Of a stretch of DNA of 64,000 nucleotides, positions 4,380-64,000 are shown one piece after another. Each line of letters begins with the position of its first letter. Position 1 is the first letter of the stretch. The notes under the pieces were generated by a model. That model saw only the letters and a program-made list of their open reading frames with translations. It did no database searches and was not told the DNA's origin. Position numbers and translations under genes: made by a program. The stretch covers positions 102,982,001-103,046,000 of the forward strand of contig NC_135888.1 in the NCBI RefSeq assembly GCF_964194155.1. Reading direction: 5' to 3'. The stretch comes from Cetorhinus maximus. Taxonomy: Eukaryota.

Positions 4380-4600
4380 TATGGATTCTATGTGTGCCAT
4401 TTCAGGTGGGCATCTTGCATCTGCAGCATGCTGTAAACAGCATAACTGGCTGATATTATACCGAATGAGTGCTTGAAAAGATTGTGGGTGGGGAAAAAGT
4501 TGCTAATTTGTCACCTTAAGTTAGTAGAGAACCTCCCAGCAGCCAATTGGGAGCCAACATTTTCTACATTACAAAGTGACTATACTTCAAATGTACTTCA
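4380..4600 (+). mobile_element. SINE with L2-type tail (Deu-SINE/SacSINE1-like), 5' part; split by the Penelope insertion and resuming at 10827-10895
   Basis: Removing 4601-10826 restores ...TTCAAATGTACTTCATTGGCTGTAAAGTGCTTTG...GAAAGGCGCTATGTAAATGCAAGTCTTTCTTT, a typical L2-derived SINE tail. Confidence 0.6.
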
Positions 4601-4663
4601 CAAAATAAAAACAGAATTACCTGGAAAAACTCAGCAAGCCTGGCAGCATCGGCGGAGAAGAAA

Positions 4664-4706
4664 TCAGTCAACGTTTCGAGCCCTCATGGCCCTTCGGCAG
4701 AACTGA
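4664..4706 (-). ncRNA. Minimal type I hammerhead ribozyme (pLTR of the inverted arm)
   Basis: Exact reverse complement of 7369-7411. Confidence 0.75.
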
Positions 4707-5053
4707 AGCATAGTTTCAACAAGGGAGAAATATAAATTGGTTTAAGGTGGGTGGGGGGGAAGAGACACATTGAGGGTGTGGTGTGAGCAGATAATCAAAA
4801 GATGTCAGAGACAAAAGGGTCAAAGAGGTGTTGAAGGTGGTGGTCTTTGTCTGAGAAAAGTGCTAATTAAGAATGGAAGACAGGATATTCAAAGTACAGC
4901 TCTAGTGGGGGTGGGGTGGAAAGACTAAAGGTTTTAGTTTTAGATTTAAAAATAATGGAAATAGGTGGGGAAAGAAGAATCTATATAAATTATTGAAAAA
5001 AAAGGCGGGTGGGGGGGGAAAAGAAACGGGGTGGGGATGGGGGGAGGGGGAGT

Positions 5054-7318
5054 TTAAGATCTAAAGTTGTTGAATTCAATATTCAGCCCAGAAGGCTGTA
5101 AAGTGCCTAGTCGGAAGATGAGGTGCTGTTCCTCCAGTTTGCGTTGGGCTTCACTGGAACAATGCAGCAAGCCAAGGACAGACATGTGGACAAGAGAACA
5201 GGGTGGAGTGTTAAAATGGCAAGCGACAGGGAGGTTTGAGTCTTTCTTGCGGACAGACCGCAGGTGTTCCGCAAAACGGTCGCCCAGTTTGCGTTTGGTC
5301 TCTCCAATGTAGAGGAGACCGCATTGGGAGCAACGAATGCAGTAGACTAAGTTAGGGGAAATGCAAGTGAAATGCTGCTTCACTTGAAAGGAGTGTTTGG
5401 GCCCTTGGACGGTGAGGAGAGAGGAAGTGAAGGGGCAGGTGTTGCATCTTCTGCGTGGGCATGGGGAGGTGCCATAAGTGGGGGTTGAGGAGTAGGGTGT
5501 AATGGAGGAGTGGACCAGGGTGTCCCGGAGGGAACGATCCCTACGGAATGCCGTCAAGGGGGGTGAAGGGAAGATGTGTTTGGTGGTGGCATCATGCTGG
5601 AGTTGGCGGAAATGGCGGAGGATGATCCTTTGAATGCGGAGGCTGGTGGGGTGATAAGTGAGGACAAGGGGGACCCTATCATGTTTCTGGGAAGGAGGAG
5701 AAGGCGTGAGGGAGGATGCGCGGGATATGGGCCGGACACGGTTGAGGGCCCTGTCAACGACCGTGGATGGAAAACCTCGGTTAAGGAAGAAGGAGGACAT
5801 GTCAGAGGAGCTGTTTTTGAAGGTAGCGTCATCAGAACAGATGCGACGGAGGCGAAGGAACTGAGAGAATGGGATGGAGTCTTTACAGGAAGCGGGGTGT
5901 GAGGAGCTGTAGTCGAGGTAGCTGTGGGAGTCGGAGGGCTTGTAATGGATATTGGTGGACAGTCTATCATCAGAAATTGAGACAGCGAGGTCAAGGAAGG
6001 GAAGAGAAGTGTCAGAGATGGACCATGTGAAGATGATGGAGGGGTGGAGATTGGAAGCAAAATTAATAAATTTTTCCAGGTCCCGACGAGAGCATGAAGC
6101 AGCACCGAAGTAATCATCGATGTACCGGAGAAAGAGTTGTGGGAGGGGGCCGGAGTAGGACTGGAATAAGGAATGTTCCACATACCCCATAAAGAGACAG
6201 GCATAGCTGGGGCCCATGCGGGTACCCATAGCCACACCTTTTATTTGGAGGAAGTGAGAGGAGCTAAAGGAGAAATTGTTCAGTGTGAGAACAAGTTCAG
6301 CCAGACGGAGGAGAGTCGTGGTGGATGGGGATTGTTGGGGCCTCTGTTCAAGGAAGAAGCTAAGGGCCCTCAGACCATCCTGGTGGGGGATGGAGGTGTA
6401 GAGGGATTGGACATCCATGGTGAAGAGGAAGCGGTTGGGGCCAGGGAACTGGAAATTGTTGATGTGACGTAAGGTGTCAGAGGAATCACGGATGTAGGTG
6501 GGAAGGGACTGGACAAGGGGAGAGAGAAGGGAGTCAAGATAACGAGAAATGAGTTCCGTGGGGCAGGAACAGGCTGACACGATCGGTCTGCCAGGACAGT
6601 TCTGTTTGTGGATTTTGGGTAGGAGGTAGAAGCGGGCCGTCCGAGGTTGGGCGACTATCAAGTTGGAAGCTGTGGGAGGAAGATCTCCAGAGGAGATGAG
6701 GTCAGTGACAGTCCTGGAAACAATGGCTTGATGTTCTGTGGTGGGGTCATGGTCCAGGGAGAGGTAGGAGGAAATGTCTGCGAGTTGACGCTCAGCCTCC
6801 GCGAGGTAGAGGTCAATGCGCCAGACAACAACAGTACCACCCTTGTCAGCGGGTTTGATGACAATGTTGGGGTTGGACCTGAGAGAACGGAGTGCAGTAA
6901 GTTCAGAGAGAGACAGATTAGAATGGGTGAGAGGAGCAGAGAAATTGAGACGGCTAATGTCACGCCGACTGTTCTCAATGAAAAGATCAAGAGAAGGTAA
7001 GAATCCAGAGGGAGGGGTCCAAGTGGAGGGAGAATATTGGAGGTGGGTAAAAGGATCCGTTGAACGGGGAGAGGACTCCTGCCCAAAGAAGTGAGCACGG
7101 AGACGAAGACGGCGGAAGAAGAGTTCAGCATCATGCCGAGCCCGAAATTCATTGAGATGAGGGCGTAAGGGTATGAAACTAAGTCCTTTGCTGAGCACTG
7201 AACGTTCAGCATCGGAGAGGGGAAGGTCAGGGGGTATAGTGAATACGCGGCTGGGGCTGGGATTGGAAGATGGGGTGAGGACGGAGGGACAAGCAGGGGT
7301 GGAGGGTCCCCGATGGGT
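5054..7318 (-). CDS. 5'-truncated Penelope-like RT/GIY-YIG ORF (inverted copy, uninterrupted frame)
   Basis: Matches residues ~164-917 of the 7559 ORF except for 5 substitutions. Lacks the native start. Confidence 0.85.
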   Translation of the reverse strand, partial: THRGPSTPACPSVLTPSSNPSPSRVFTIPPDLPLSDAERSVLSKGLSFIPLRPHLNEFRARHDAELFFRRLRLRAHFFGQESSPRSTDPFTHLQYSPSTWTPPSGFLPSLDLFIENSRRDISRLNFSAPLTHSNLSLSELTALRSLRSNPNIVIKPADKGGTVVVWRIDLYLAEAERQLADISSYLSLDHDPTTEHQAIVSRTVTDLISSGDLPPTASNLIVAQPRTARFYLLPKIHKQNCPGRPIVSACSCPTELISRYLDSLLSPLVQSLPTYIRDSSDTLRHINNFQFPGPNRFLFTMDVQSLYTSIPHQDGLRALSFFLEQRPQQSPSTTTLLRLAELVLTLNNFSFSSSHFLQIKGVAMGTRMGPSYACLFMGYVEHSLFQSYSGPLPQLFLRYIDDYFGAASCSRRDLEKFINFASNLHPSIIFTWSISDTSLPFLDLAVSISDDRLSTNIHYKPSDSHSYLDYSSSHPASCKDSIPFSQFLRLRRICSDDATFKNSSSDMSSFFLNRGFPSTVVDRALNRVRPISRASSLTPSPPSQKHDRVPLVLTYHPTSLRIQRIILRHFRQLQHDATTKHIFPSPPLTAFRRDRSLRDTLVHSSITPYSSTPTYGTSPCPRRRCNTCPFTSSLLTVQGPKHSFQVKQHFTCISPNLVYCIRCSQCGLLYIGETKRKLGDRFAEHLRSVRKKDSNLPVACHFNTPPCSLVHMSVLGLLHCSSEAQRKLEEQHLIFRLGTLQPSGLNIEFNNFRS

Positions 7319-7521
7319 CCCCACCCACCTTAAACCAATTTATATTTCTGCCTTGTTGAAACTATGCTTCAGTTCTGCCGAAGGGCCATGAGGGCTCGAA
7401 ACGTTGACTGATTTCTTCTCCGCCGATGCTGCCAGACTTGCTGAGTTTTTCCAGGTAATTCTGTTTTTATTTTGTTTTGGATTTCCAGCATCCGCAGTAG
7501 CTTTTAGCTTTTTGTTTTTAT
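7319..7521 (+). repeat. 5' pseudo-LTR (203-bp direct repeat of 10610-10812)
   Basis: Offset 3291 bp; 2 mismatches seen. Confidence 0.9.
7369..7411 (+). ncRNA. Minimal type I hammerhead ribozyme
   Basis: Stem I UCAGUU/GACUGA; core CUGCCGA(A); stem II GGGCC-AUGAG-GGCUC; GAAA; palindromic stem III AACGUU; predicted GUU cleavage after 7405. Confidence 0.8.
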
Positions 7522-7558: not shown

Positions 7559-10312
7559 ATGCCCTCTTGGAAGAAGTATGGTTCTGTCCTCCGACAGGAT
7601 TTCCGACTGTCTCTTCTGCCCTGCTCACCTTCATTGCTTTCCATTTCTCTCCTGGTGTTTGACAAGGTGTTTACTAAAACCCGCTTTCACAGCCATATCT
7701 CCTTTCTCAGTGACTGTCTCCGTCTCCGACTCACCCCACGTGGATTTCAACTGAAATTCCATCCCTCTTGTTTCGAACCCACCCAGGATTACAGGTATCT
7801 CCGGGACATAAAACGTTTCTCGGACTGCTGTTCCCGTCGCATTCTGAGATCCACACTCAGTGCCATGCGCCGCCATATGAACACACTCGACCTCTCCCTC
7901 CAGCAGCACCGCCGCACCCTTTTTCAAAGCTGCGCGTGCCCCCAGTTTCATTTTATTCTTCGCCTCATCCGTCGCCTCAACAAGAAACTTTTTCTCTTTC
8001 TCTCAAGTGCTAAGGAACGCAAGCTCCAACAACTCATCGACTCCAACACCCATCGGGGACCCTCCACCCCTGCTTGTCCCTCCGTCCTCACCCCATCTTC
8101 CAATCCCAGCCCCAGCCGCGTATTCACTATACCCCCTGACCTTCCCCTCTCCGATGCTGAACGTTCAGTGCTCAGCAAAGGACTTAGTTTCATACCCTTA
8201 CGCCCTCATCTCAATGAATTTCGGGCTCGGCATGATGCTGAACTCTTCTTCCGCCGTCTTCGTCTCCGTGCTCACTTCTTTGGGCAGGAGTCCTCTCCCC
8301 GTTCAACGGATCCTTTTACCCACCTCCAATATTCTCCCTCCACTTGGACCCCTCCCTCTGGATTCTTACCTTCTCTTGATCTTTTCATTGAGAACTGTCG
8401 GCGTGACATTAGCCGTCTCAATTTCTCTGCTCCTCTCACCCATTCTAATCTGTCTCTCTCTGAACTCACTGCACTCCGTTCTCTCAGGTCCAACCCCAAC
8501 ATTGTCATCAAACCCGCTGACAAGGGTGGTACTGTTGTTGTCTGGCGCATTGACCTCTACCTCGCGGAGGCTGAGCGTCAACTCGCAGACATTTCCTCCT
8601 ACCTCTCCCTGGACCATGACCCCACCACAGAACATCAAGCCATTGTTTCCAGGACTGTCACTGACCTCATCTCCTCTGGAGATCTTCCTCCCACAGCTTC
8701 CAACTTGATAGTCGCCCAACCTCGGACGGCCCGCTTCTACCTCCTACCCAAAATCCACAAACAGAACTGTCCTGGCAGACCGATCGTGTCAGCCTGTTCC
8801 TGCCCCACGGAACTCATTTCTCGTTATCTTGACTCCCTTCTCTCTCCCCTTGTCCAGTCCCTTCCCACCTACATCCGTGATTCCTCTGACACCTTACGTC
8901 ACATCAACAATTTCCAGTTCCCTGGCCCCAACCGCTTCCTCTTCACCATGGATGTCCAATCCCTCTACACCTCCATCCCCCACCAGGATGGTCTGAGGGC
9001 CCTTAGCTTCTTCCTTGAACAGAGGCCCCAACAATCCCCATCCACCACGACTCTCCTCCGTCTGGCTGAACTTGTTCTCACACTGAACAATTTCTCCTTT
9101 AGCTCCTCTCACTTCCTCCAAATAAAAGGTGTGGCTATGGGTACCCGCATGGGCCCCAGCTATGCCTGTCTCTTTATGGGGTATGTGGAACATTCCTTGT
9201 TCCAGTCCTACTCCGGCCCCCTCCCACAACTCTTTCTCCGGTACATCGATGATTACTTCGGTGCTGCTTCATGCTCTCGTCGGGACCTGGAAAAATTTAT
9301 TAATTTTGCTTCCAATCTCCACCCCTCCATCATCTTCACATGGTCCATCTCTGACACTTCTCTTCCCTTCCTTGACCTCTCTGTCTCAATTTCTGATGAT
9401 AGACTGTCCACAAATATCCATTACAAGCCTACCGACTCCCACAGCTACCTCGACTACAGCTCCTCACACCCCGCTTCCTGTAAAGACTCCATCCCATTCT
9501 CTCAGTTCCTTCGCCTCCGTCGCATCTGTTCTGATGACGCTACCTTCAAAAACAGCTCCTCTGACATGTCCTCCTTCTTCCTTAACCGAGGTTTTCCATC
9601 CACGGTCGTTGACAGGGCCCTCAACCGTGTCCGGCCCATATCCCGCGCATCCTCCCTCACGCCTTCTCCTCCTTCCCAGAAACATGATAGGGTCCCCCTT
9701 GTCCTCACTTATCACCCCACCAGCCTCCGCATTCAAAGGATCATCCTCCGCCATTTCCGCCAACTCCAGCATGATGCCACCACCAAACACATCTTCCCTT
9801 CACCCCCCTTGACGGCATTCCGTAGGGATCGTTCCCTCCGGGACACCCTGGTCCACTCCTCCATCACCCCCTACTCCTCAACCCCCACTTATGGCACCTC
9901 CCCATGCCCACGCAGAAGATGCAACACCTGCCCCTTCACTTCCTCTCTCCTCACCGTCCAAGGGCCCAAACACTCCTTTCAAGTGAAGCAGCATTTCACT
10001 TGCATTTCCCCTAACTTAGTCTACTGCATTCGTTGCTCCCAATGCGGTCTCCTCTACATTGGAGAGACCAAACGCAAACTGGGTGACCGTTTTGCGGAAC
10101 ACCTGCGGTCTGTCCGCAAGAAAGACCCAAACCTCCCTGTCGCTTGCCATTTTAACACTCCACCCTGTTCTCTTGCCCACATGTCTGTCCTTGGCTTGCT
10201 GCATTGTTCCAGTGAAGCCCAACGCAAACTGGAGGAACAGCACCTCATCTTCCGACTAGGCACTTTACAGCCTTCTGGGCTGAATATTGAATTCAACAAC
10301 TTTAGATCTTAA
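7559..10312 (+). CDS. Penelope-like element polyprotein: reverse transcriptase + Zn-finger + GIY-YIG endonuclease (917 aa, intact)
   Basis: IKPADKG, LLPKIHK..PGRPIVS, MDVQSLYT, GVAMGTRMGPSYA, RYIDD, LPFLD, CPRRRCNTC, VYCIRCSQCGLLYIGET..RFAEH. The CxxxxCxxC linker is typical of the Neptune clade. Confidence 0.95.
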   Translation: MPSWKKYGSVLRQDFRLSLLPCSPSLLSISLLVFDKVFTKTRFHSHISFLSDCLRLRLTPRGFQLKFHPSCFEPTQDYRYLRDIKRFSDCCSRRILRSTLSAMRRHMNTLDLSLQQHRRTLFQSCACPQFHFILRLIRRLNKKLFLFLSSAKERKLQQLIDSNTHRGPSTPACPSVLTPSSNPSPSRVFTIPPDLPLSDAERSVLSKGLSFIPLRPHLNEFRARHDAELFFRRLRLRAHFFGQESSPRSTDPFTHLQYSPSTWTPPSGFLPSLDLFIENCRRDISRLNFSAPLTHSNLSLSELTALRSLRSNPNIVIKPADKGGTVVVWRIDLYLAEAERQLADISSYLSLDHDPTTEHQAIVSRTVTDLISSGDLPPTASNLIVAQPRTARFYLLPKIHKQNCPGRPIVSACSCPTELISRYLDSLLSPLVQSLPTYIRDSSDTLRHINNFQFPGPNRFLFTMDVQSLYTSIPHQDGLRALSFFLEQRPQQSPSTTTLLRLAELVLTLNNFSFSSSHFLQIKGVAMGTRMGPSYACLFMGYVEHSLFQSYSGPLPQLFLRYIDDYFGAASCSRRDLEKFINFASNLHPSIIFTWSISDTSLPFLDLSVSISDDRLSTNIHYKPTDSHSYLDYSSSHPASCKDSIPFSQFLRLRRICSDDATFKNSSSDMSSFFLNRGFPSTVVDRALNRVRPISRASSLTPSPPSQKHDRVPLVLTYHPTSLRIQRIILRHFRQLQHDATTKHIFPSPPLTAFRRDRSLRDTLVHSSITPYSSTPTYGTSPCPRRRCNTCPFTSSLLTVQGPKHSFQVKQHFTCISPNLVYCIRCSQCGLLYIGETKRKLGDRFAEHLRSVRKKDPNLPVACHFNTPPCSLAHMSVLGLLHCSSEAQRKLEEQHLIFRLGTLQPSGLNIEFNNFRS

Positions 10313-10609
10313 ACTCCCCCTCCCCCCATCCCCACCCCGTTTCTTTTCCCCCCCCACCCGCCTTTTTTTTCAATAATTTATATAGATTCTTCTTTCCCCA
10401 CCTATTTCCATTATTTTTAAATCTAAAACTAAAACCTTTAGTCTTTCCACCCCACCCCCACTAGAGCTGTACTTTGAATATCCTGTCTTCCATTCTTAAT
10501 TAGCACTTTTCTCAGACAAAGACCACCACCTTCAACACCTCTTTGACCCTTTTGTCTCTGACATCTTTTGATTATCTGCTCACACCACACCCTCAATGTG
10601 TCTCTTCCC

Positions 10610-10812
10610 CCCCACCCACCTTAAACCAATTTATATTTCTCCCTTGTTGAAACTATGCTTCAGTTCTGCCGAAGGGCCATGAGGGCTCGAAACGTTGACT
10701 GATTTCTTCTCCGCCGATGCTGCCAGACTTGCTGAGTTTTTCCAGGTAATTCTGTTTTTATTTTGTTTTGGATTTCTAGCATCCGCAGTAGCTTTTAGCT
10801 TTTTGTTTTTAT
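10610..10812 (+). repeat. 3' pseudo-LTR
   Basis: Direct repeat of 7319-7521, ending in a T-rich tract next to the TSD. Confidence 0.9.
10660..10702 (+). ncRNA. Minimal type I hammerhead ribozyme (3' pLTR copy)
   Basis: Identical to 7369-7411. Confidence 0.8.
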
Positions 10813-11375
10813 TCAAATGTACTTCATTGGCTGTAAAGTGCTTTGAAAGGTTGTGCGGTCATGAAAGGCGCTATGTAAATGCAAGTCTTTCTTTCTCTCT
10901 AATAGGCTAACGTATCCGCTTCAAAACCAAAAGAGAAGGCATTTCTGACCTTTGTCTGTTAGTACAATCCACTTATGGGTGTCTACCTGCCTTACAGCTT
11001 TAGCTAAACTCCCAGTATGTGCTTTGCTTCCTCCTCTTGTAGTTAGTGTGTCTCAGAAATTGTGCACAATCTTTTCTCGCAAATCAACTTTTCATCTTGT
11101 CAGTCACAGCCGTTAAATTTGACAATGATTCAAACGTTCTCATCACTTTTATTTCGATGGGAATTCCAAAGGAGGGGAGACTCCAATAGATCTCTTGCCT
11201 TAATACTGAGGCCATAGCATCTGGAAGATTCTAATGCTGAATAGGTATGTGGAATAAAAGCTATAACAACAATATTTCTTCCTAACACACATTAAATATG
11301 TAAAGAAATTGCATCTCATTGTTTATATTCCTGCTGTAATATACTATTTATATATTATTAAATATTATTACAACA

Positions 11376-23024: not shown

Positions 23025-23570
23025 AGTAACATTGAAAGATTTATGGCTTGGAAAGAGGCCATTTGGCCCATCCTATCCATGCTGGCCAAAAAGAGCTCTC
23101 CAGCCTAATCCCACCTTGCAGCTCTTGGTCTGTAACCCTGTAGGTTACAGCACCTCAACTGTATATCCAAGTGTTTTTAAATGGGAATGAGGATTTCTGC
23201 CTCTAGCACCCTTTCAGGTATGAGTTCCAGACCCTCGGCACCTTCTGTGTGAAAACAATTCCTTCTCAACTAAATACAGAGATAAAAACAAAAAACTACT
23301 GCGGATGCTGGAAATCCAAAACAAAAACAGAATTACCTGGAAAAACTCAGCAGGTCTGGCAGCATCGGCGGAGGACTCAGCATGAGGACTCGAAACATCG
23401 ACTCTTTTCTTCTCCGCCGATGCTGCCAGACTTGCTGAGTTTTTCCAGGTAATTCTGTTTTTGTGTTCCTTCTCAACTACCTGCTAATCCTTCTACCAAG
23501 TATTTTAAATTCATTCTCCTGGTTATTGACTTCTCTGATAAGGGAAATAGGTCCTTCCTATTCACTGTAT
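23025..23570 (-). mobile_element. CR1 3' fragment
   Basis: GAGGCCATTTGGCCCATC..CCAATCCCA-like..GAGTTCCAGACCC pattern shared with the other CR1 tails in the window. Confidence 0.6.
23273..23465. mobile_element. Palindromic Penelope pLTR mini-element with 14-bp TSD
   Basis: TTCCTTCTCAACTA at 23259-23272 and 23466-23479. Arms 23321-23373 / 23412-23464 (1 mismatch). Near-identical to pLTR 7415-7530. Half-hammerhead CATGAGGACTCGAAACATCGAC in the loop. Confidence 0.9.
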
Positions 23571-34364: not shown

Positions 34365-35260
34365 TGAAACATAGAATCATGCAGCACAGGAGGCCATTCA
34401 GCCCAATGTGCTTATGTTAGCTCTTTGATAGAGCTAATTAATCCCATCTCCATGCTCTTTTCCTGTAGCTCTGCAGCTTTTTCATCCTCAAATATTTTTC
34501 TAATTCTCTTTCGAAAGTTACAACTGAATCTGCTTCCACAAACAGTGCATTCCAGGTCACAACTCGCTGTGTAATAAAATGTTTCCTCATATCGCCACTG
34601 TTCTTGCAAATCACCTTAAATTTGACTTAAAACAAAAGCAGAACACATTGGATGCTGGAAATCTGAAATAAAAACAGAAAATGCTGGAAATACTCAGCAG
34701 ATCTGGCAGCATCTGTGGAGAGAAAAACAGAGATAACATTTCAGATCAAGGACCTTTCGTCAGAGCACCTTAAATTTGTGAACTTTACTTGCTGACCTTT
34801 CTGGCGTTAAAAATAGTTTCTCCTTATTGCCTCTATAAAGCCCATTTATAATTTTGAACACCTCTATCAAATCACCTCAATCTTTTCTGCTCTAAGGAGA
34901 ACAACCCCACTTTCTCCAGTCTCTCCACATCCCTGGTATCATTCTATTAAATCTCTTCTGCATTCTGTTCAAGTCCTTGACAGCCTTCCTAAAGTATGGT
35001 GCCAGAATTGAACTCAATACTCCAGCTAAGGCCTAACGAGTGTTGTTTAAAGGTTCAGCATAACCTCTTGGCTTTGTATTCTATTTTAAATAAATAAAGC
35101 CAAGGATCTCATCTTTTTAATAACAGTCTCAACTTGTCCTGTCACCGTCTAAGGTTCGTGTGCATACACCCACAACCCATCCACTCCCAGCTGCCTTTGC
35201 TCCTGCATGCTCTTTAAAATTGTACCATTTAATTCATATTCCTTCTCCTCATTCTCTTTG
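34365..35260 (-). mobile_element. CR1 3' fragment
   Basis: CATAGAATCAT tail, GGAGGCCATTCAGCCC and antisense RT C-terminus. Confidence 0.7.
34625..34765 (-). mobile_element. Solo Penelope pLTR with hammerhead core, 13-bp TSD
   Basis: CACCTTAAATTTG at 34612-34624 and 34766-34778. Minus strand begins CT-CTGACGA-AAGGTC-CTT-GATCT-GAAA-TGTT. Confidence 0.85.
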
Positions 35261-46288: not shown

Positions 46289-49200
46289 ATGGTCTTGTAT
46301 GGTGATGGTGGGTCTCAATTGATGTTGCAATGAAGGAAGTTGTGTCTTTAGCCTTCTCCCCATCAGTAGTTCAGCTGGCAAAAAGCCACTCCTTAATGGC
46401 GTTGCCCTGAAATTGAGTAAGGCTCGCTCTAGATCATTGTTCATTTTCATGGTTTTACCCCTCTGTCTGCTTCTCCATTAGCCTGCAGATGGTGTGGAAA
46501 ACTGGTCACATGGTGAAATTCATTCACTGCGAATTGTTGGAAGTGTGCATTCATAAGCTGTGGACTCTTGTCCGAGATAACCTCATCTGGAATGCCATAG
46601 ATCGAGTAAATACGTTTCAAATCTTTTACCACAGCTTCTGTGGTTGTGGTATGGAGTCTGCTGATTTCCGGCCAGTGAGGGTAATAGTTGATGACTAAAG
46701 GGTAGATTTTTTTCTCTGAAGTCTAACAGGTCCATTGCTAGACCCTGCCAAGGCCTGGATGGAACTGTTGATGGTAGCAACATCTGTTGGCTCTTGTCTG
46801 TTGATGGCACAGGTATGGCACGTCAAAATAAATTATTCAATAGATTTAGAAATTCCCGGCCACCATACTAATTGTTGTGCCTATGCTTTGCATTTGTTAA
46901 TGCCCAAATGACCACTGTGGAGTTTTTGGAGAATGTCTGCACATCACTCTCAGGATTACTAGCCTGTCATTGAATACTAGAAGGTCACCAACAATTGTCA
47001 GATGTTTTTGTTGCTCGTGATATTGTCTTAACACCTGACAGCTTGGGACATATTCAGACCAACCTTCTTGGCAGTATGTTCTGACCTGACTGCATTCTGC
47101 ATCCTTCAGCTGGGCTTTCCTAATCTCCCTGAGTTTGTTTGCAGTTGTTGCAGAACTTGTTATTGATGAAGAATATACTTTCACTTCAGAGATGGGTGTC
47201 AAGTGATGTTCTGTAGCCTGGTCGACTGTAACTCTCGATAATGTGTCGGCAGTTTTCTGACTTTTCCCTGGCATGTACTTTGTTGTAGAGTCATAGCGCA
47301 TGAGTCTTGGCCAGAAACGTTGTATCCTTGGCAACATCTTAGCAATTTCCTTGGAGTTCAGTAGAGTGAGGTTTATGGTCTGTCTCAATCCTGAATTGTA
47401 AGCCCATTGAGTAATCTGAAATGTTTTCGCAAGCCCATGTCGCCATTAGTGCTTCCCTTTCAATTGTTGCATAACATTTTTCAGTCTCTGTCAATGATTT
47501 AGAGGCATAGCAAACCAATATTTTCCTGCCATCATCCTGGATCTGTAGAATAATGACTACGAGCCCCATTGCTAATGCATCAGCTGCCACTATTGTCTGC
47601 AGTTTGGGGTCATAATGTGCAAGCACGTCTGAAGAGATGATTGGCTTTTCAATCTTGTCAACTCCCCAATACCACTGCTGACTCTTTCTCAGCAGGTCTT
47701 GTAAAGGTTCGTTGATGGCAGACAGATTTGGGATGAAATTTCCCCACCTGATTGACCATGCCTAAAAATCTTTATATGTCAGCAACACTCTTGGTATTTT
47801 GGGGGCCTACTGTTGTCCCTTTTTAGCTGTATAATATAGCCTAAATATTTGATGTTGGATTTCCCAACCTCTCACTTTTCACTCAGAGTGAGGCCTGTTT
47901 GTTCAAGCACTTTCAAAAGCTCCCAGATACTATGATCGTGCTCTTTTTTGGTAGCACTATGGATGAGCAGATTTTCCATGTGGCAAATAATGTCTTTTCT
48001 GCCTCTGAGCATGTTGGACATAGTGCTTTGAAAGATTTCTGGTGCAAAGTATATGCCAAAGGGAAGTTGATTGAAGCAAAAGTGACCGAGGGGTGATAAA
48101 TGTTGTCAGCAATCTTCATTCTTAGTTAAGGGGGATCTGCCAGAAACCACTGTTGGAATCCAGCTTCGTAAAAAGAACACTTTTGGACAATCTCGCCGGA
48201 CTGTCATCAACAGAAGACATTGGGCGTATCTCTCCTTGAATAGCTTTATTTAGCTGTGTCAGATCAACACAGAACCTGATTTCACCATTAGGTTTATGGA
48301 CTGTCACTAGACCTGAGCACCATTTTGTAGGCACTGTAACAGGAGAGATAACTCATTGACGCAGCATCCTGTCACCGTGCTCTTTGGCTTTCTCGATCAG
48401 TAGATAATGTACCCTCCCAGGGGTAAATAAGCAGACGAGTTTGGCATCCAGGAGTAGAGCAATGTGATATTCAATTTTGAGCTTTCCCAATCCCCGGAAT
48501 AACCTAGGAAATTCATTCCTAGTACAGCCTTGCTGTCATTCTGTGTTATCTCTTTGACTCTTTGTAGAAGACTGAGTTACGAACATGCTGTTCTGCTGAG
48601 CAGAGAAAGTTTTTGATTCCCTAGGATAGAGAGTTTCATTAATTTCTTTATCGTTTTGCCTAAGGATTGTAGTGATCCAGCCCTTCACTTTGAGGTCTGT
48701 GCCTCCTGGCCTCTGCAGCTTTATTTTTGATGGCTGGATCTCAACATTATTAAGCCAGTCCAATTTATCTGACAAGACTGTGAACCCAGCCCAGTGTGTA
48801 GTTTAAATTCTGTCCTGTATCCTTTGACTTCCAGCTCTACAGATCAGAACTACTTGTTGGGGTCTTTTATTTACCCCAGGAAATCTTTATTGTGAATGTC
48901 TTGTTCTTGCTTTCTTCCTTTCAATTGTACTTTAGACCTGCAGAATTGTTTAAAATGTCCAGTTTTTGTCCACAGGTAAAGCATTCGGCCCCTACTGCTG
49001 GGCAGTATTTGTGACGATTGCTGCCTTTTGGCGCTGTAACTAGAACATTTTAACATAGGTGGAAGAGTTTTTCCCACCCCATGGTGGTTTTTGCAGGCTT
49101 TTTCAGTGCCTTTTGGTGGGTGGAGCTCCCAACTTTGGGCCTACATACTACGCCTATCCCCCCTGAACCTCGATGTCTCCCTGAAGTGTAACCCAATTCT

Positions 49201-50118: not shown

Positions 50119-50302
50119 TACAAAAAAAATACTGCAGATGCTGGAAATCTGAAATAAAAACAGAAAATGCTGGAAACGTTCAACAGGTCGGGTAGCATCC
50201 ACAATTTTGATGTAGGGTCATCGACTTAAAACATTAACTCTGTTTCTCTCCACAGATGCTGCCTTACCTTCTGAGTATTTCCAGCATTTTCTGTTTTTAT
50301 TT
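50119..50302. mobile_element. Palindromic Penelope pLTR mini-element with 12-bp TSD (older subfamily)
   Basis: ATGTTATTCTGA at 50107-50118 and 50303-50314; arms ~50152-50199 / 50255-50302; decayed hammerhead TTGATGTAGGGTCATCGACTTAAAACATT between them. Confidence 0.85.
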
Positions 50303-50857: not shown

Positions 50858-51343
<486 letters not shown>

Positions 51344-56639: not shown

Positions 56640-56900
56640 TCAGAGGAATCGGGAATGTAGGTGGAAAGAGACTGGACAAGGGGAGAGAGAATGGAGTCAA
56701 GATAGGAAGAAATGAGTTCCGTGGGGCAGGAACAGGCTGACACAATGGGTCTACCGGGACAGTCCTGTTTGTGGATTTTGGGAAGGAGGTAGATGGAGAC
56801 TATGAGGTTGGAAGCTGTGGAAGGAAGATCTCCAGAGGCGATGAAGTCAGTGACAGTCCTGGAAACAATGGCTTGATGTTCGGTGGTGGGGTTGTGGTCC
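56640..56900 (-). mobile_element. Diverged internal fragment of the Neptune element
   Basis: Colinear with 6477-6755, with scattered substitutions and a small deletion. Confidence 0.8.
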
Positions 56901-59170
56901 GGGGGCGGGTGTGGGGGGGGGGAGGTAGGAGTGTGGAGAGGGGTAGGACTAAGGGTGGAGGAAGAAATAAAGGTGGAGGAAGGAGTCAGGAAGGGGGGAA
57001 GGAGTAAGGGTGTCTGAAGGAGTCAGGAAGGGGGAAGAAGTAAGGCTGGAGGAAGGAGTTGGGAGGGGGTAAGGACTAAGGGTGATGGAAGAAATAAGAA
57101 TGTCTGAAGAAGTCAGGAAGGGTGAAGAACTAAGCGTGGGGTTGGTGGGGGGGTGGGGGGAGGGGGGGGAGGACTAAGGTGAGGGGGGAGTCTGCAGGGG
57201 GGAAGGGATTCCTGGGGGAAGGGGTTCAAGGGGTTCCAAGGGGGGAGGGGTCAATGGGGGGGATGTCCAGGTGAATGTGCAAGGGAGGGCTCTGATGAGT
57301 CCTGAACTGCCTCCTGGGGAGCGAACTGAGGGTGTGCGTGTTATGAGGGAAGGGTGAGACTGACTGAGGGCAGAGTGAGGCAGTAAGGTTGGAGGGTGAT
57401 GGTTCGATGGTAGAAGAGACGGCAATGGTCGTTGGTAGGGACTTGGAGTCAGACACGGACCCTGGGGGTGGGAAGGAGGAGGTCAGGGAGGTTAATGTGG
57501 ATGGGGGTGGGATTTTCAGGAAGGAAGGGAATGTGCACATTCACCTGGACATCCCCGAAAGAAAAGGGTTGTGGCCGGTATTGGGAGGTGGAAGGTGATG
57601 CCGGGGGGGGGGGCCAACAGTGATGGTGGAAAGAAAATAGGTGAGTGGGGGGGAGGGGAAAGGATGGGGGAGTGAATGAAACCACCACTATGCTGGCTAA
57701 GTCAAAAGTAAAGTGAGAGTCGTGGTGGGCGAGATCAGATACTGCATGGGAGTGTGATCAATGGGTGTGTGGAGATGCAGGTCAGCACAGATGGACAACT
57801 GAAAATGTACCCGGCAGGCAGTGTTGAAAATGCTCAGGACATTGAGGTGAATGTGATACGGGAAGGATCCATATGCATGGGAGAATGCTTACAAGAGGCT
57901 CTGAAAGGCTCTACCACTCACATACACTTCTCCCTCCAGAATCACTCGTTGGCCAGCTGCTCCCTCTGCGGTGATAGGGGATGAGGTTGAGCGAGTCACA
58001 GGCAAAGGGGACTCGGAGGGAGACAACATCCTCAGATTCCTGAGTGGATGACCCAGGGGTGTCCAGCTGCCGCTCCTCTTCCCTTTGAGTGCCCAGGGGC
58101 CCCAGCCTGACTCCTTGAGGGGAAGGAGCTCCTGGAAGGACATTGACGTGCCCTTTTTCCCTCCCATGTCGTCACTGCAGGAACTCACCCATGGCTCCCG
58201 CAATGGGGTGCAGGTTTGCACACATCTCCGTGTTCTGCCGGACCAGGGTCTTCGTGGCGTCTGCCATCCTTCCCATGGAGGCCTCTATATGCGTACATGT
58301 GGGCACCACTTCATCAGGGAACAGACAGACTCACTCCTCCAACTTGTGAGCCACTCTGTTGAGGGTTTCCAACAGCTCTGCATAATGTTTCCATGCCTTC
58401 TTCTGACTGTCCAGGATGAGTTGGAAGGCCAAATCCAGAGGCATGCCATCTGACTTGGACCCCACAGATGCCTCTTCCCCAGCAGTCCTTTAAGTGCTGG
58501 AGAACTCAACTGAACCTGCCTCTTCCTGCTATGGATACATGTCTGTGTACCAGCAGGTTGTAAACCTGAGCCTGCTCTAGATCTCAGTCCCACTGAGGTG
58601 TGTGTTTCTGTGCTGGTGGAGGGTGTGGGTAAGCACTGTGAAGGGTCTTCCAAGCTGCTTATTTCCAGCTCTTCCATGGAGGAGGTGAGGACCATAAGAC
58701 ATAAGACCATAAGACATAGGAGCAGAAATCAGGACAATCGGCCCATCAAGTCTGCTCCGCCATTCAATCATGGCTGATAAGTTTCTCAACCCCATTCTCC
58801 CGCCTTCTCCCCATAACCTTTGTTCCCCTAACCAATCAAGAACCTATCTATCTCGGTCTTAAATACACTCAATGACCTGGCCTCCACAGCCTTCTGTGGC
58901 AATGAATTCCATAGATTCACCACTCTCTGGCTAAAGAAGTGAGGACATGGACTGGGGCAGAGGGATTGGCTGGTCACTTGGCAGAGCTCCCTGTGAATCA
59001 AAGTAGAGATAGTTAGTGCATGGCAGCAGAGCCAAAAGCAGGAGAGGGAGCCTTCACAGTTGCATTGAGAGAGGGATGGTGCAGTGCGGGATCCACAGGT
59101 GGGTGTTTGTCACCAGAACAGATCCAGCGTCACTCCCAGCTCTCCAGTGAATGTTCATTCTCCCCAACAT
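56900..59170 (-). mobile_element. G-rich low-complexity tract plus decayed Harbinger Myb/SANT gene region
   Basis: Repeated GGAGT(A/C)AGG..GAAGG units at 56930-57130. Broken ORFs SSMEELEISSLEDPSQCLPTPSTSTETHTSVG. Confidence 0.45.
58693..58938 (-). mobile_element. Young 5'-truncated CR1 tail with (CATAAGA)3 terminal repeat and 8-bp TSD
   Basis: GTGAGGAC at 58685-58692 and 58939-58946. Confidence 0.8.
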
Positions 59171-61448: not shown

Positions 61449-64000
61449 GGGCAGAATTTTCTGGCTGACGTGAGGGTGGCGGAGCCCGCAGGTCAGATCT
61501 TAAAATGTCGTGCGAGCGTCCCGACGTCAGCGCGCAGCATCGCGATATTTCAGTCGGCAGGCGCGCACAGCAGTGGGATACGCGCCCGCCATTAATTAAA
61601 GGCCTCGTTAAGGCCCTCAACTTGCCAATTGTCCAGGATTTTGAGGGGCCCGTGCGAACTTCAGGTCGGAGCACGGGCCCAACAGGCAGGCGGGTAGGAG
61701 ATTTTTTAATAAAACTCATGCACTGGCGGGATATGTGGACTCAGAGGGGTTGTTCATGTTTTACACAAAGTTTTAATTGCAGAAAGTGTTATAAAGTTGC
61801 CTGTTTGATTGTTAGCAGTTCACATCAATTTCCAAGAACTTTTTGTGTACTTTGAAACCAGTCTGCAGACAGTAATCTTTCTCGGGCCTGCAGCTTTCCG
61901 GAGGCCTCCATTTAGCCTGGGAGTACGGGTTCTGACATCTCCACTGGAGGCAGCTCCTCTGAGGAGGAAGGGAGGGATAGAATAAGGAGGAGGCCAGGAC
62001 TGGACAATCAGCCTCTAGGGGAACCACCTTTTGGAGGCCAGGCGCAGGCACAAGGGGCGCAGGGCCAAGATGTTGTGCAAGGGGCCGCAGAAGACACCAC
62101 TATCCTGCTGCCAGGGTATACAGGTGGCAAAGCAGCTACCTCAGTATGACTGAGGTGCAGAGCCGAAGGAGGCTCCGACTCTCAAGGGAGACAGTCACCT
62201 ATATCTGTCAGATGATTGGCTCTGATATCTCCCCTAACTGTGTGGATGGACACGCTGTGCCAGTGGCTCTGAAGCTCACAGTTGCCCTCCAGTTCTATGC
62301 CTCTGGCTCCTTCCAGGGCTCGGTGGATGATCTTTGCAATGTCTCCCAATCAGCTGTCCACATTTGTGTCAAGCAGGTTACAGACACTCTGTTCAGATGG
62401 GTATTGACCTTCATCCACTTCCACTGCGACCAGGCAAGTCAGGCACAGTGAGCCTGAGGCTTCGCAGCCATTGCTGGCTTCCCCCGCGTCCAGGGTGCTA
62501 TAGACTGCACACATGTGGCCATCAAGGCGCCAGCAGGTGAGCCCGGTGCCTTCGCCAACAGGAAGGGCTTCCACTCCATGAATGTGCAGATAGTGTGTGA
62601 TCACAGGATGCAGATTTTACAAGTCTGTGCAAGGTACCCAGGCAGCTCCCACGACGCCTACATCCTCAGATACTCCCAGGTGCCGGGGCTCTTCAGTGCT
62701 CCGGCTCGGCTGGATGGATGGCTGCTGGGTGACAAGGGCTATCCCCTGCGAAGGTGGCTCATGACGCCTCTCCGCCATCCAAGAACAGAGGCTGAGCAGC
62801 GGTACAATAGGAGCCACGGCACCACAAGGGCTGTGGTGGAGAGAGCCATCAGTCTTCGCAAGATGCGCTTCCTTTGCATGGACCGCTCAGGGAGCGCACT
62901 CCAGTACTCCCCAGATCGTGTCTCTGTGATAGTGGTAGCATGCTGCGCTCTGCACAATCTTGCGCTGTAAAGGGGGGATGCAGTTGACGATGAAGACTTT
63001 GACGCAGTGGATGAGGCTGCACATGATGAATCCAGCAGTGGCTCAGAGGATGAGGAAGCACAGGGCAATGATGAGGGGCAGCACGCCGACCCGCTATTAC
63101 ACCAAGGAGGCAGGGACACCCGGGACAATTTAATCCAACAAACCTTCAGCTAGCTCCACACGCATGGATCAGCAGGAGCAGCATTGCCTGGCACTTCCAC
63201 ACATGGCACTTAGGTGCCACATCTTCCACCTTATCAGCTGCAACTAAGGGCTTAGTACAGAAACATCAATGTCCACTCAAACACTCATGATATGTCTGTG
63301 AAAAAGAAAAATGCAGCACAAAGGAAACACCCTCAGCCATGGTCAGAAAAGTGGACTTTATTATGTCCAAAATATAACAGAGACTTCTCCATTGCAAACA
63401 TAAGAATTTTGTTCCCTATTCTAAGGCCAGTACAAAATCACCAGTGACATATCCATTGAGTGCCTAACGTGCCTTATGCTTACGTTTGCGGGTGCTACGT
63501 CCAGGTGCCGCCCTATCGGTCGGAGTGGCTTGAAAGACAGCCTGCTGACTCTGCTGTCCTGTTGGCATCGATGACCTTGGCGGGCATCCTCTGGCCCATG
63601 GAGCCTGTGATGGCCTCGCCTGGGAGGGAGTGGCTAGTTCCAGAACTGGCACCTCCCCAGTTGTCACAGCCTCAACGGAAGCAACATTGACTGGCAGGGA
63701 GGCGGAGGAGCTGCTGCCCTCATCCGGAGCACCCTGAGAGGAGCTCGCAGCAACGGCAGGCAGCTGCTGCGCCAACGTGAGGTCCAAATCTACCTCCCTG
63801 CTCGCCGCAGATGCATAGGTACCGAGTGCTGATGCTTGGTGCCCACAACATCTCCCACATTGGGAATGATCACTTGTGGCCAGTACCGCTGTGAGGGCTT
63901 GCAGGTCAGAGTGTAACCCAATCAGAAGATTTTCCATCCGATCGAACCCCCTATCCAGGAGAGTAGCCAATCTCTCAGTGGCGGAAGCCTGAAGCTCTGC
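61449..64000 (+). mobile_element. Harbinger/PIF DNA transposon, left part (runs off the window)
   Basis: TTA target then TIR GGGCAGAATTTT; transposase (+) convergent with the 3' end of a second gene (63464-64000, -). Confidence 0.8.
62083..63153 (+). pseudogene. HARBI1-like DDE transposase with three in-frame stops
   Basis: [69 protein letters not shown]; stops at 62449, 62455 and 62968; frame otherwise continuous. Confidence 0.9.

Follow-up and report, generated by a model that had tools for sequence, protein, structure and literature searches.

The window analysed here, a stretch of 64,000 nucleotides from Cetorhinus maximus, contains a Penelope-like element which is bounded by a perfect 15-bp target-site duplication (left copy 4586..4600 and right copy 10812..10826, both on the forward strand). 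From left to right the element consists of an inverted, 5′-truncated unit on the reverse strand (4600..7318) and a main unit on the forward strand. The inverted unit differs at 13 of its 2719 bases from positions 8048-10766 of the same element, and within it a reading frame is open over 5054-7339. The main unit carries a 5′ pseudo-LTR of 203 bases (7319..7521), an intact ORF of 917 codons (7559..10312), which codes for a reverse transcriptase and a GIY-YIG endonuclease as judged from domain matches and homologs, and a 3′ pseudo-LTR of 203 bases (10610..10812), which is a direct repeat of 7319..7521 with 2 differences. The insertion site sits in an older repeat, the halves of which are contiguous in other copies (with loose ends at 10812).

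The ORF holds a reverse transcriptase (about 8774-9268), a DKG motif and a GIY-YIG endonuclease (about 10016-10123), and between reverse transcriptase and endonuclease lies a CX2-5CxxC linker (about 9905-9931, residue 790 of the translation from 7538). The Pfam matches to RVT_1 (E 1.1e-6, 29.0 bits) and to GIY-YIG (E 4.5e-4, 20.9 bits) are just below the curated cut-offs of 29.6 and 22.6 bits, respectively. Among 8000 scored sequences 747 are homologs of the ORF at E up to 1e-20, many of them with the same domains, and the best named ones belong to Chiloscyllium punctatum, a bamboo shark (69% over 600 residues). The N-termini of the homologs place the start of the ORF at 7559, 153 bases past the predicted cut of the hammerhead described below. 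[quoted passage not shown] By the linker and domain definitions of PMC8557442 the element is of the Neptune/Nematis type; it shares with these elements the C-terminal GIY-YIG, the CX2-5CxxC linker, DKG and the partial tandem with an inverted 5′-truncated copy, the clade being read from these features, and it is unlike them in its non-canonical hammerhead core (PMC8557442). A further Penelope ORF, related to this one, has left a piece at 56640-56904 (84% identity to 8607-8889).

Both pseudo-LTRs and the 3′ end of the inverted unit contain an identical motif of 43 bases, a minimal type I hammerhead, which lies on the forward strand at 7369..7411 and, 3291 bases downstream, at 10660..10702 and on the reverse strand at 4664..4706 (C3 at 4700). 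In the 5′ pseudo-LTR stem I has six pairs (7369-7374/7406-7411) with a U-G closing pair, and the core reads C3 (7375), U4 (7376), G5 (7377), C6 (7378), then C7, G8 and A9. A single additional A (7382) separates A9 from stem II, which consists of five pairs (7383-7387/7393-7397) closed by G10.1-C11.1, and GAAA (7398-7401) is followed by a loop-less C15.2-G16.2, U16.1 (7404) and U17 (7405), with the predicted cut at 7405/7406. The structural features of the Penelope minimal hammerheads are thus all found (helix I, helix II with G10.1-C11.1, the extra base after A9, GAAA, the palindromic 15.2-16.2 and NUH), but the CUGANGA core box is broken by a C at 7378, at 10669 (position 6 of the 3′ pseudo-LTR) and in the inverted copy. 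Since every structural feature except this box is present, we class the motif as a core variant and not as a canonical member. An earlier note, written from the letters of the window, had described a minimal type I hammerhead with the same CUGCCGA core at three sites and placed in a Penelope pseudo-LTR, and both the motif and its placement were confirmed by the sequence and, for the motif, by a descriptor search. The note had, however, taken AACGUU as stem III; A14 and U17 belong to the core and therefore the stem III of a dimer is limited to the four-base palindrome ACGU (7401-7404). We rejected U17 as a further oddity of the motif, as 24 of 56 published motifs have it (PMC4209133 Fig. S3, counted by eye), and no second canonical core that could serve as a backup was found elsewhere within the element. 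In the pseudo-LTR 3′ of the hammerhead (7440-7500, forward strand) there are polypyrimidine tracts that end in CAG, as well as a donor-like site, possibly an intron of the 5′ UTR.

A relaxed hammerhead descriptor which allows a non-A at position 6 matched exactly three sites in the window, and these are the three C6 copies; canonical A6 hammerheads gave 0 matches in the window. The background in 150 first-order Markov resamples was 0.02 non-A6 and 0.007 A6 matches per window. An Rfam search of the window with E up to 5 returned four matches and no hammerhead among them, and the Rfam covariance models would be expected to miss minimal hammerhead motifs. The four matches are hairpin look-alikes, the false MIR5534 match arising from a pseudo-LTR stub at 23284-23462. 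The folding energy of the motif is not significantly different from background (z -1.19). When the whole pseudo-LTR is folded, the pairs of stems I and II reach probabilities of 0.65-0.96, as against 0.2-0.5 in a shorter context, and the modelled double hammerhead of two copies reaches -23.9 kcal/mol, whereas an alternative fold of the two copies is more stable at -29.8 kcal/mol.

The three C6 motifs are not independent observations, because they belong to one insertion event bounded by the perfect 15-bp duplication. Twelve codons differ between the inverted and the main unit, 7 of them synonymously and 5 non-synonymously, where 25-28% synonymous changes would be expected, and dN/dS is 0.24-0.28 (p 0.014-0.029). 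With these small numbers, templates which had already diverged under selection seem to fit the differences better than decay after insertion would. C6 is present in both units, and there is a hint that a single insertion event copied two different templates.

For comparison the window offers older pseudo-LTR relics. A canonical core had been noted in an old copy near 34765, and CTGACGA is indeed present at 34763 on the reverse strand, but it belongs to a decayed relic of a different subfamily (34650..34770, reverse strand; 78% identity over 86 bases to the young pseudo-LTR), which has A at position 6 and decayed stems and fails the relaxed descriptor because its stem I is broken. An old palindromic pseudo-LTR stub at 50123..50302 has a decayed core and likewise an A at position 6 (about 50210). 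Another palindromic stub, from a close sister subfamily (23284..23462, 94% over 82 bases), ends just 3′ of the core, so that position 6 cannot be read. C6 is probably the derived state, since the two relics at 34763 and about 50210 retain A6. CpG decay was rejected as a source of C6, A to C being a transversion. In both stubs two pseudo-LTR ends stand head-to-head, and the one at 50123-50302 is apparently flanked by a short direct repeat.

Whether C6 is private to this locus was addressed with public sequencing runs, 20 of the 22 listed carrying part of the element. The best runs share 0.93-0.96 of the sampled words for organism A and 0.69-0.73 for organisms B, C and D, and the latter shares would correspond to about 99% identity as an upper bound. 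The 18 runs outside the four compared below include all RNA-labelled ones, and their word shares of 0.32-0.49 are not taken as evidence of expression. Four of the 22 runs were compared over 10440-10900 with at least 82% likeness and a variant threshold of 3%; in the raw-read run X21 only 5 reads were placed, all on the flank, and the allele evidence consists of the contigs of X1, X5 and X9. Position 6 (10669) has no variant row among those listed in these three runs. In each of them the only C>A place and the only C>G place are at flank position 10856, and A6 and G6 hence make up less than 3% of contig depth in all three element-bearing runs. For X5 all 8 C>T places are listed and none is 10669, while for X1 and X9 the listed places are 8 of 10 and 7 of 9, and a minority of U6 is possible in both. 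Seventeen variant rows lie outside the listed set, and changes of A or G in the core may be among them.

In X5 one contig record (record 11, 82 bases, 10631-10712) extends over the entire motif and reaches a depth of 695 with 1 other letter, and because this is 8.7% of the local depth any change at position 6 would have appeared in the list. A second X5 contig with 3 other letters has a depth of 201, and five other listed X5 records have depths of 3-7.5, from which we estimate roughly 100-230 near-identical copies in X5. For X1 the depths at 10670 add up to 1.3 million, which is not a copy number, while its 8 listed records have depths of 52-104. Contigs lose rare variants, A6 families which are too diverged upstream fall below 82% likeness, X1 possibly represents the source sample, and the organisms behind the labels could be closely related. 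With these caveats, the public runs show C6 to be the state of the majority in a Neptune-type family of high copy number and recent activity under three organism labels. As A6 is below 3% in 3/3 runs and the copy number is high, C6 is a family trait and not decay at this locus; the contigs also led us to reject a private reverse transcription error as its source. The earlier note had seen in the three copies a sign that C6 was carried by a transposition-competent lineage: the lineage is supported by the public runs and the high copy number, the argument from three copies fails as they are all one insertion, and the frequency of C6 among other copies tells that it is not private here. Exact-pattern scans for the motif found nothing in metagenome contigs or viral contigs. 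Protein-based locus searches gave 1 distant match (38%) from 80 candidate stretches in prokaryote genomes and none from 13 in viral contigs; this match is a Penelope-like reverse transcriptase (38% identity) at 606-1816 of a 1.8-kb contig which was assigned to a bacterial MAG and is probably a eukaryotic contamination.

The same runs bear on whether the fold is still selected. The listed variants within the motif are 10670 C>T at N7 (7, 9 and 21% in X1, X5 and X9), 10683 G>A in loop II (49, 60 and 0%), 10696 T>C at N17 (15, 29 and 86%), 10697 G>A, which turns the U-G pair at 1.1 into U-A (42, 87 and 91%), and in distal stem I 10701 G>C and 10702 A>T, the state of the sister subfamily which is also found in the relic at 23381. 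All six are at tolerant positions (rough p 0.002-0.006; 4/6 if the distal pairs are taken as constrained), the tolerant and constrained classes being defined post hoc and the events being few and from mixed subfamilies. Of the CpG cytosines in X5 the free N7 varies at 9% but C11.1 and C15.2 at less than 3%. Every C and T change of this run is accounted for, and none is at C3, U4, C11.1, C15.2, U16.1 or in stem II; 6 further A or G places are spread across 461 bases outside the listed set. The position of the variants weakly suggests that the hammerhead fold is still selected.

Comparison with known systems shows both parts of the picture to have precedents. Like the Penelope minimal hammerheads, the motif is of type I, occurs in both pseudo-LTRs and has the extra base 9/10.1, G10.1-C11.1, the loop-less palindromic 15.2-16.2 and U17 (PMC4209133). 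The Neptune motif of Acropora digitifera matches it at every core position but 6 and in the four inner pairs of stem II (PMC4209133 Fig. S3). The difference is C6, which is found in 0 of the 56 rows of that figure, where the core variant is U3-A8; none of the 56 rows comes from a cartilaginous fish (PMC4209133). The same A6C substitution occurs naturally in the phage hammerhead Bcep176, but there it concerns one intergenic RNA of a phage, which was assayed as a single ribozyme (PMC3088659, PMC7151607), whereas here we have a high-copy vertebrate retroelement whose hammerhead needs a partner for stem III. PAc, a Poseidon element of Anolis carolinensis, is likewise an EN+ Penelope-like element of a vertebrate, has a hammerhead in its pseudo-LTR and supplies a working model of protein-assisted cutting with uncut RNA as template; it belongs, however, to the Penelope/Poseidon clade and its ORF begins inside the hammerhead, in contrast to the CX2-5CxxC linker and the ORF start 153 bases past the cut found here (PMC11167929).

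Hammerheads with A6C are slow but active, with low, detectable activity (PMC3088659, PMC7151607). A phage hammerhead of this kind, slow and favouring Mn2+ over Mg2+, had been mentioned in the earlier note, correctly as Bcep176 shows (PMC3088659, PMC7151607). In Mg2+ the engineered A6C form of a mouse-gut hammerhead cuts at 3.6e-6/min at 0.3 mM and at 0.067/min at 1 mM, and in Mn2+ at 0.00093/min at 10 µM and at 0.18/min at 0.3 mM (PMC7151607 Table 1). In pairwise mutagenesis of a type III hammerhead all single and double mutants of the CUGA turn were of low activity and were not rescued, with the exception of the C3-G8 swap (PMC9901934). Penelope minimal hammerheads are inactive as monomers and cleave slowly as dimers (PMC4209133), and the hammerhead of the anole element cuts only with its protein, uncut RNA being the main template (PMC11167929).

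It is reasonable to infer from the published A6C kinetics that the C6 hammerhead is attenuated. We give about an even chance to the reading that it is an attenuated ribozyme which needs dimerisation and probably the protein of the element, and which is tolerated since insertion uses uncut RNA. The low activity of the CUGA-turn mutants in the type III hammerhead (PMC9901934) and the more stable alternative fold of the two copies speak against this reading. A lone motif would be unable to make stem III; on a read-through RNA the ACGU palindromes of two copies could pair to give a double hammerhead, probably aided by the protein, and C6 would further slow the cutting at cellular Mg2+. Most RNA would then remain uncut without cost to the element, because reverse transcription would start internally on uncut RNA. 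Rare cuts at 7405/7406 would trim tandem transcripts, and, speculatively, a weak cutter may be better tolerated within host introns. That A6C was selected rather than tolerated, the gate being closed in free RNA or host pre-mRNA and cutting occurring only upon protein binding or above a steep Mg2+ threshold, appears to us rather unlikely. If it were true, this would be, within the literature searched, the first natural A6C hammerhead of a eukaryote with demonstrated activity, and descriptor-based surveys would have missed whole retroelement families with altered cores.

The main rival to an attenuated but maintained ribozyme is that A6C killed the ribozyme in a source element which amplified anyway, cleavage being dispensable; we regard it as a serious possibility, although on balance an unlikely one. 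Catalytic mutants of the anole hammerhead insert normally in vitro, and no RNA-seq reads of this element start or end at the cut site (PMC11167929). Naiad elements reach very high copy numbers without canonical hammerheads, and the authors suggest that hammerheads may merely parasitise Penelope-like elements (PMC8557442). In addition, A6C falls here on a motif which already cuts poorly (PMC4209133). The fold would in this case persist by the slow evolution typical of sharks or by another role of the stem-loop, e.g., protein binding. On the other hand, the listed variants leave stem II and the rest of the core untouched under all three organism labels, and A6C is slow and not null in two other hammerheads (PMC7151607). 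A milder view, that folding is rate-limiting in a minimal, dimeric and protein-assisted hammerhead, so that C6 has an activity similar to that of A6 and became fixed by drift, is in our opinion improbable. The mouse-gut A6C hammerhead does reach 0.14-0.33/min in 3-10 mM Mg2+ (PMC7151607), but at 0.3 mM Mg2+ A6C costs it about five orders of magnitude (PMC7151607). Position 6 may also vary more than published, since the descriptors of earlier surveys were fixed at CUGANGA (PMC4209133, PMC8557442); against this, A6 is present in 56/56 representatives of Fig. S3, where the descriptor demanded it (PMC4209133), and is kept in the two older relics of the window.

The earlier note had also spoken of a metal-tuned ribozyme, C6 being selected to make cutting Mn2+-dependent. 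This claim is weak and we consider it very improbable; nothing in the window ties the element to manganese. Free Mn2+ in vertebrate cells is far below free Mg2+. A6C indeed prefers Mn2+ over Mg2+ in Bcep176 and in the engineered mouse-gut hammerhead, but useful rates required 0.1-0.3 mM Mn2+, and the rate of the latter in 10 µM Mn2+ is far below that in 1 mM Mg2+ (0.00093/min vs 0.067/min; PMC7151607 Table 1). Given the low free Mn2+ and this slow rate, Mn2+ should not set the rate in vertebrate cells, and the authors of the study profess not to know the biological relevance of the effect (PMC7151607). Finally, an upstream reading frame of 15 codons (7364-7411, forward strand) spans the hammerhead core and has the same phase as the main ORF, and in it position 6 decides between cysteine and stop. 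That C6 is kept for translation control has a parallel in the anole element, whose ORF begins inside its hammerhead (PMC11167929), but the small frame stops at 7411, several stops precede the main ORF, and the N-termini of the homologs match the ATG at 7559 while by eye none matched the small frame. We therefore give this explanation hardly any weight. A coding constraint of the main ORF on C6 was rejected, as by the homologs this ORF starts at 7559.

Hammerheads in pseudo-LTRs have been known since 2014 and the A6C substitution since 2011; the two combined in a Penelope element are new within the literature searched. We found no A6C Penelope hammerhead there, and Lunse et al. 2016/17 or preprint supplements could hold a precedent. 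Bcep176 is the only natural A6C hammerhead in this literature, and the available parts of PMC12192606 and PMC6155905 add no other. The available part of one supplement of PMC8557442 has no match to two short motifs or to shark names, and a 2026 preprint on animal retrozymes covers one chondrichthyan, the word "core" being absent from its available text. Surveys based on CUGANGA are blind to a C6 family because they require the core box. The role of hammerheads in Penelope transposition is itself puzzling, as cutting is dispensable in the one in vitro system and yet the motifs are kept across animals. A multi-species lineage fixed for a core-crippling substitution is a natural experiment on this point, with the A6 families of the same genome as controls.

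As to the genomic context, the region at about 50895-51343 on the forward strand is probably the last coding exon of a KCTD16-like gene (Atlas score 0.96, acceptor-like sequence); a weak Pfam match of the same region to Dynein_C (E 0.001) is likely spurious. No BTB exon was found among the 125 frames scanned in the window. From the last-exon match and the lack of a BTB exon the insertion would lie in the upstream intron of this gene, which we take to have a two-exon layout with a very long intron. The Penelope insertion is therefore probably within an intron, two of its motifs having the sense orientation, and the 2.7-kb inverted repeat in the host transcript could sequester one motif in double-stranded RNA. 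Other mobile elements have left traces in the window as well: RNase H and weak integrase matches at 46450-47761 on the reverse strand are pieces of a decayed LTR retrotransposon, and a fragment of a DDE_Tnp_4 (Harbinger-type) transposase or nuclease is found at 62458-62967 on the forward strand (E 7.7e-38).
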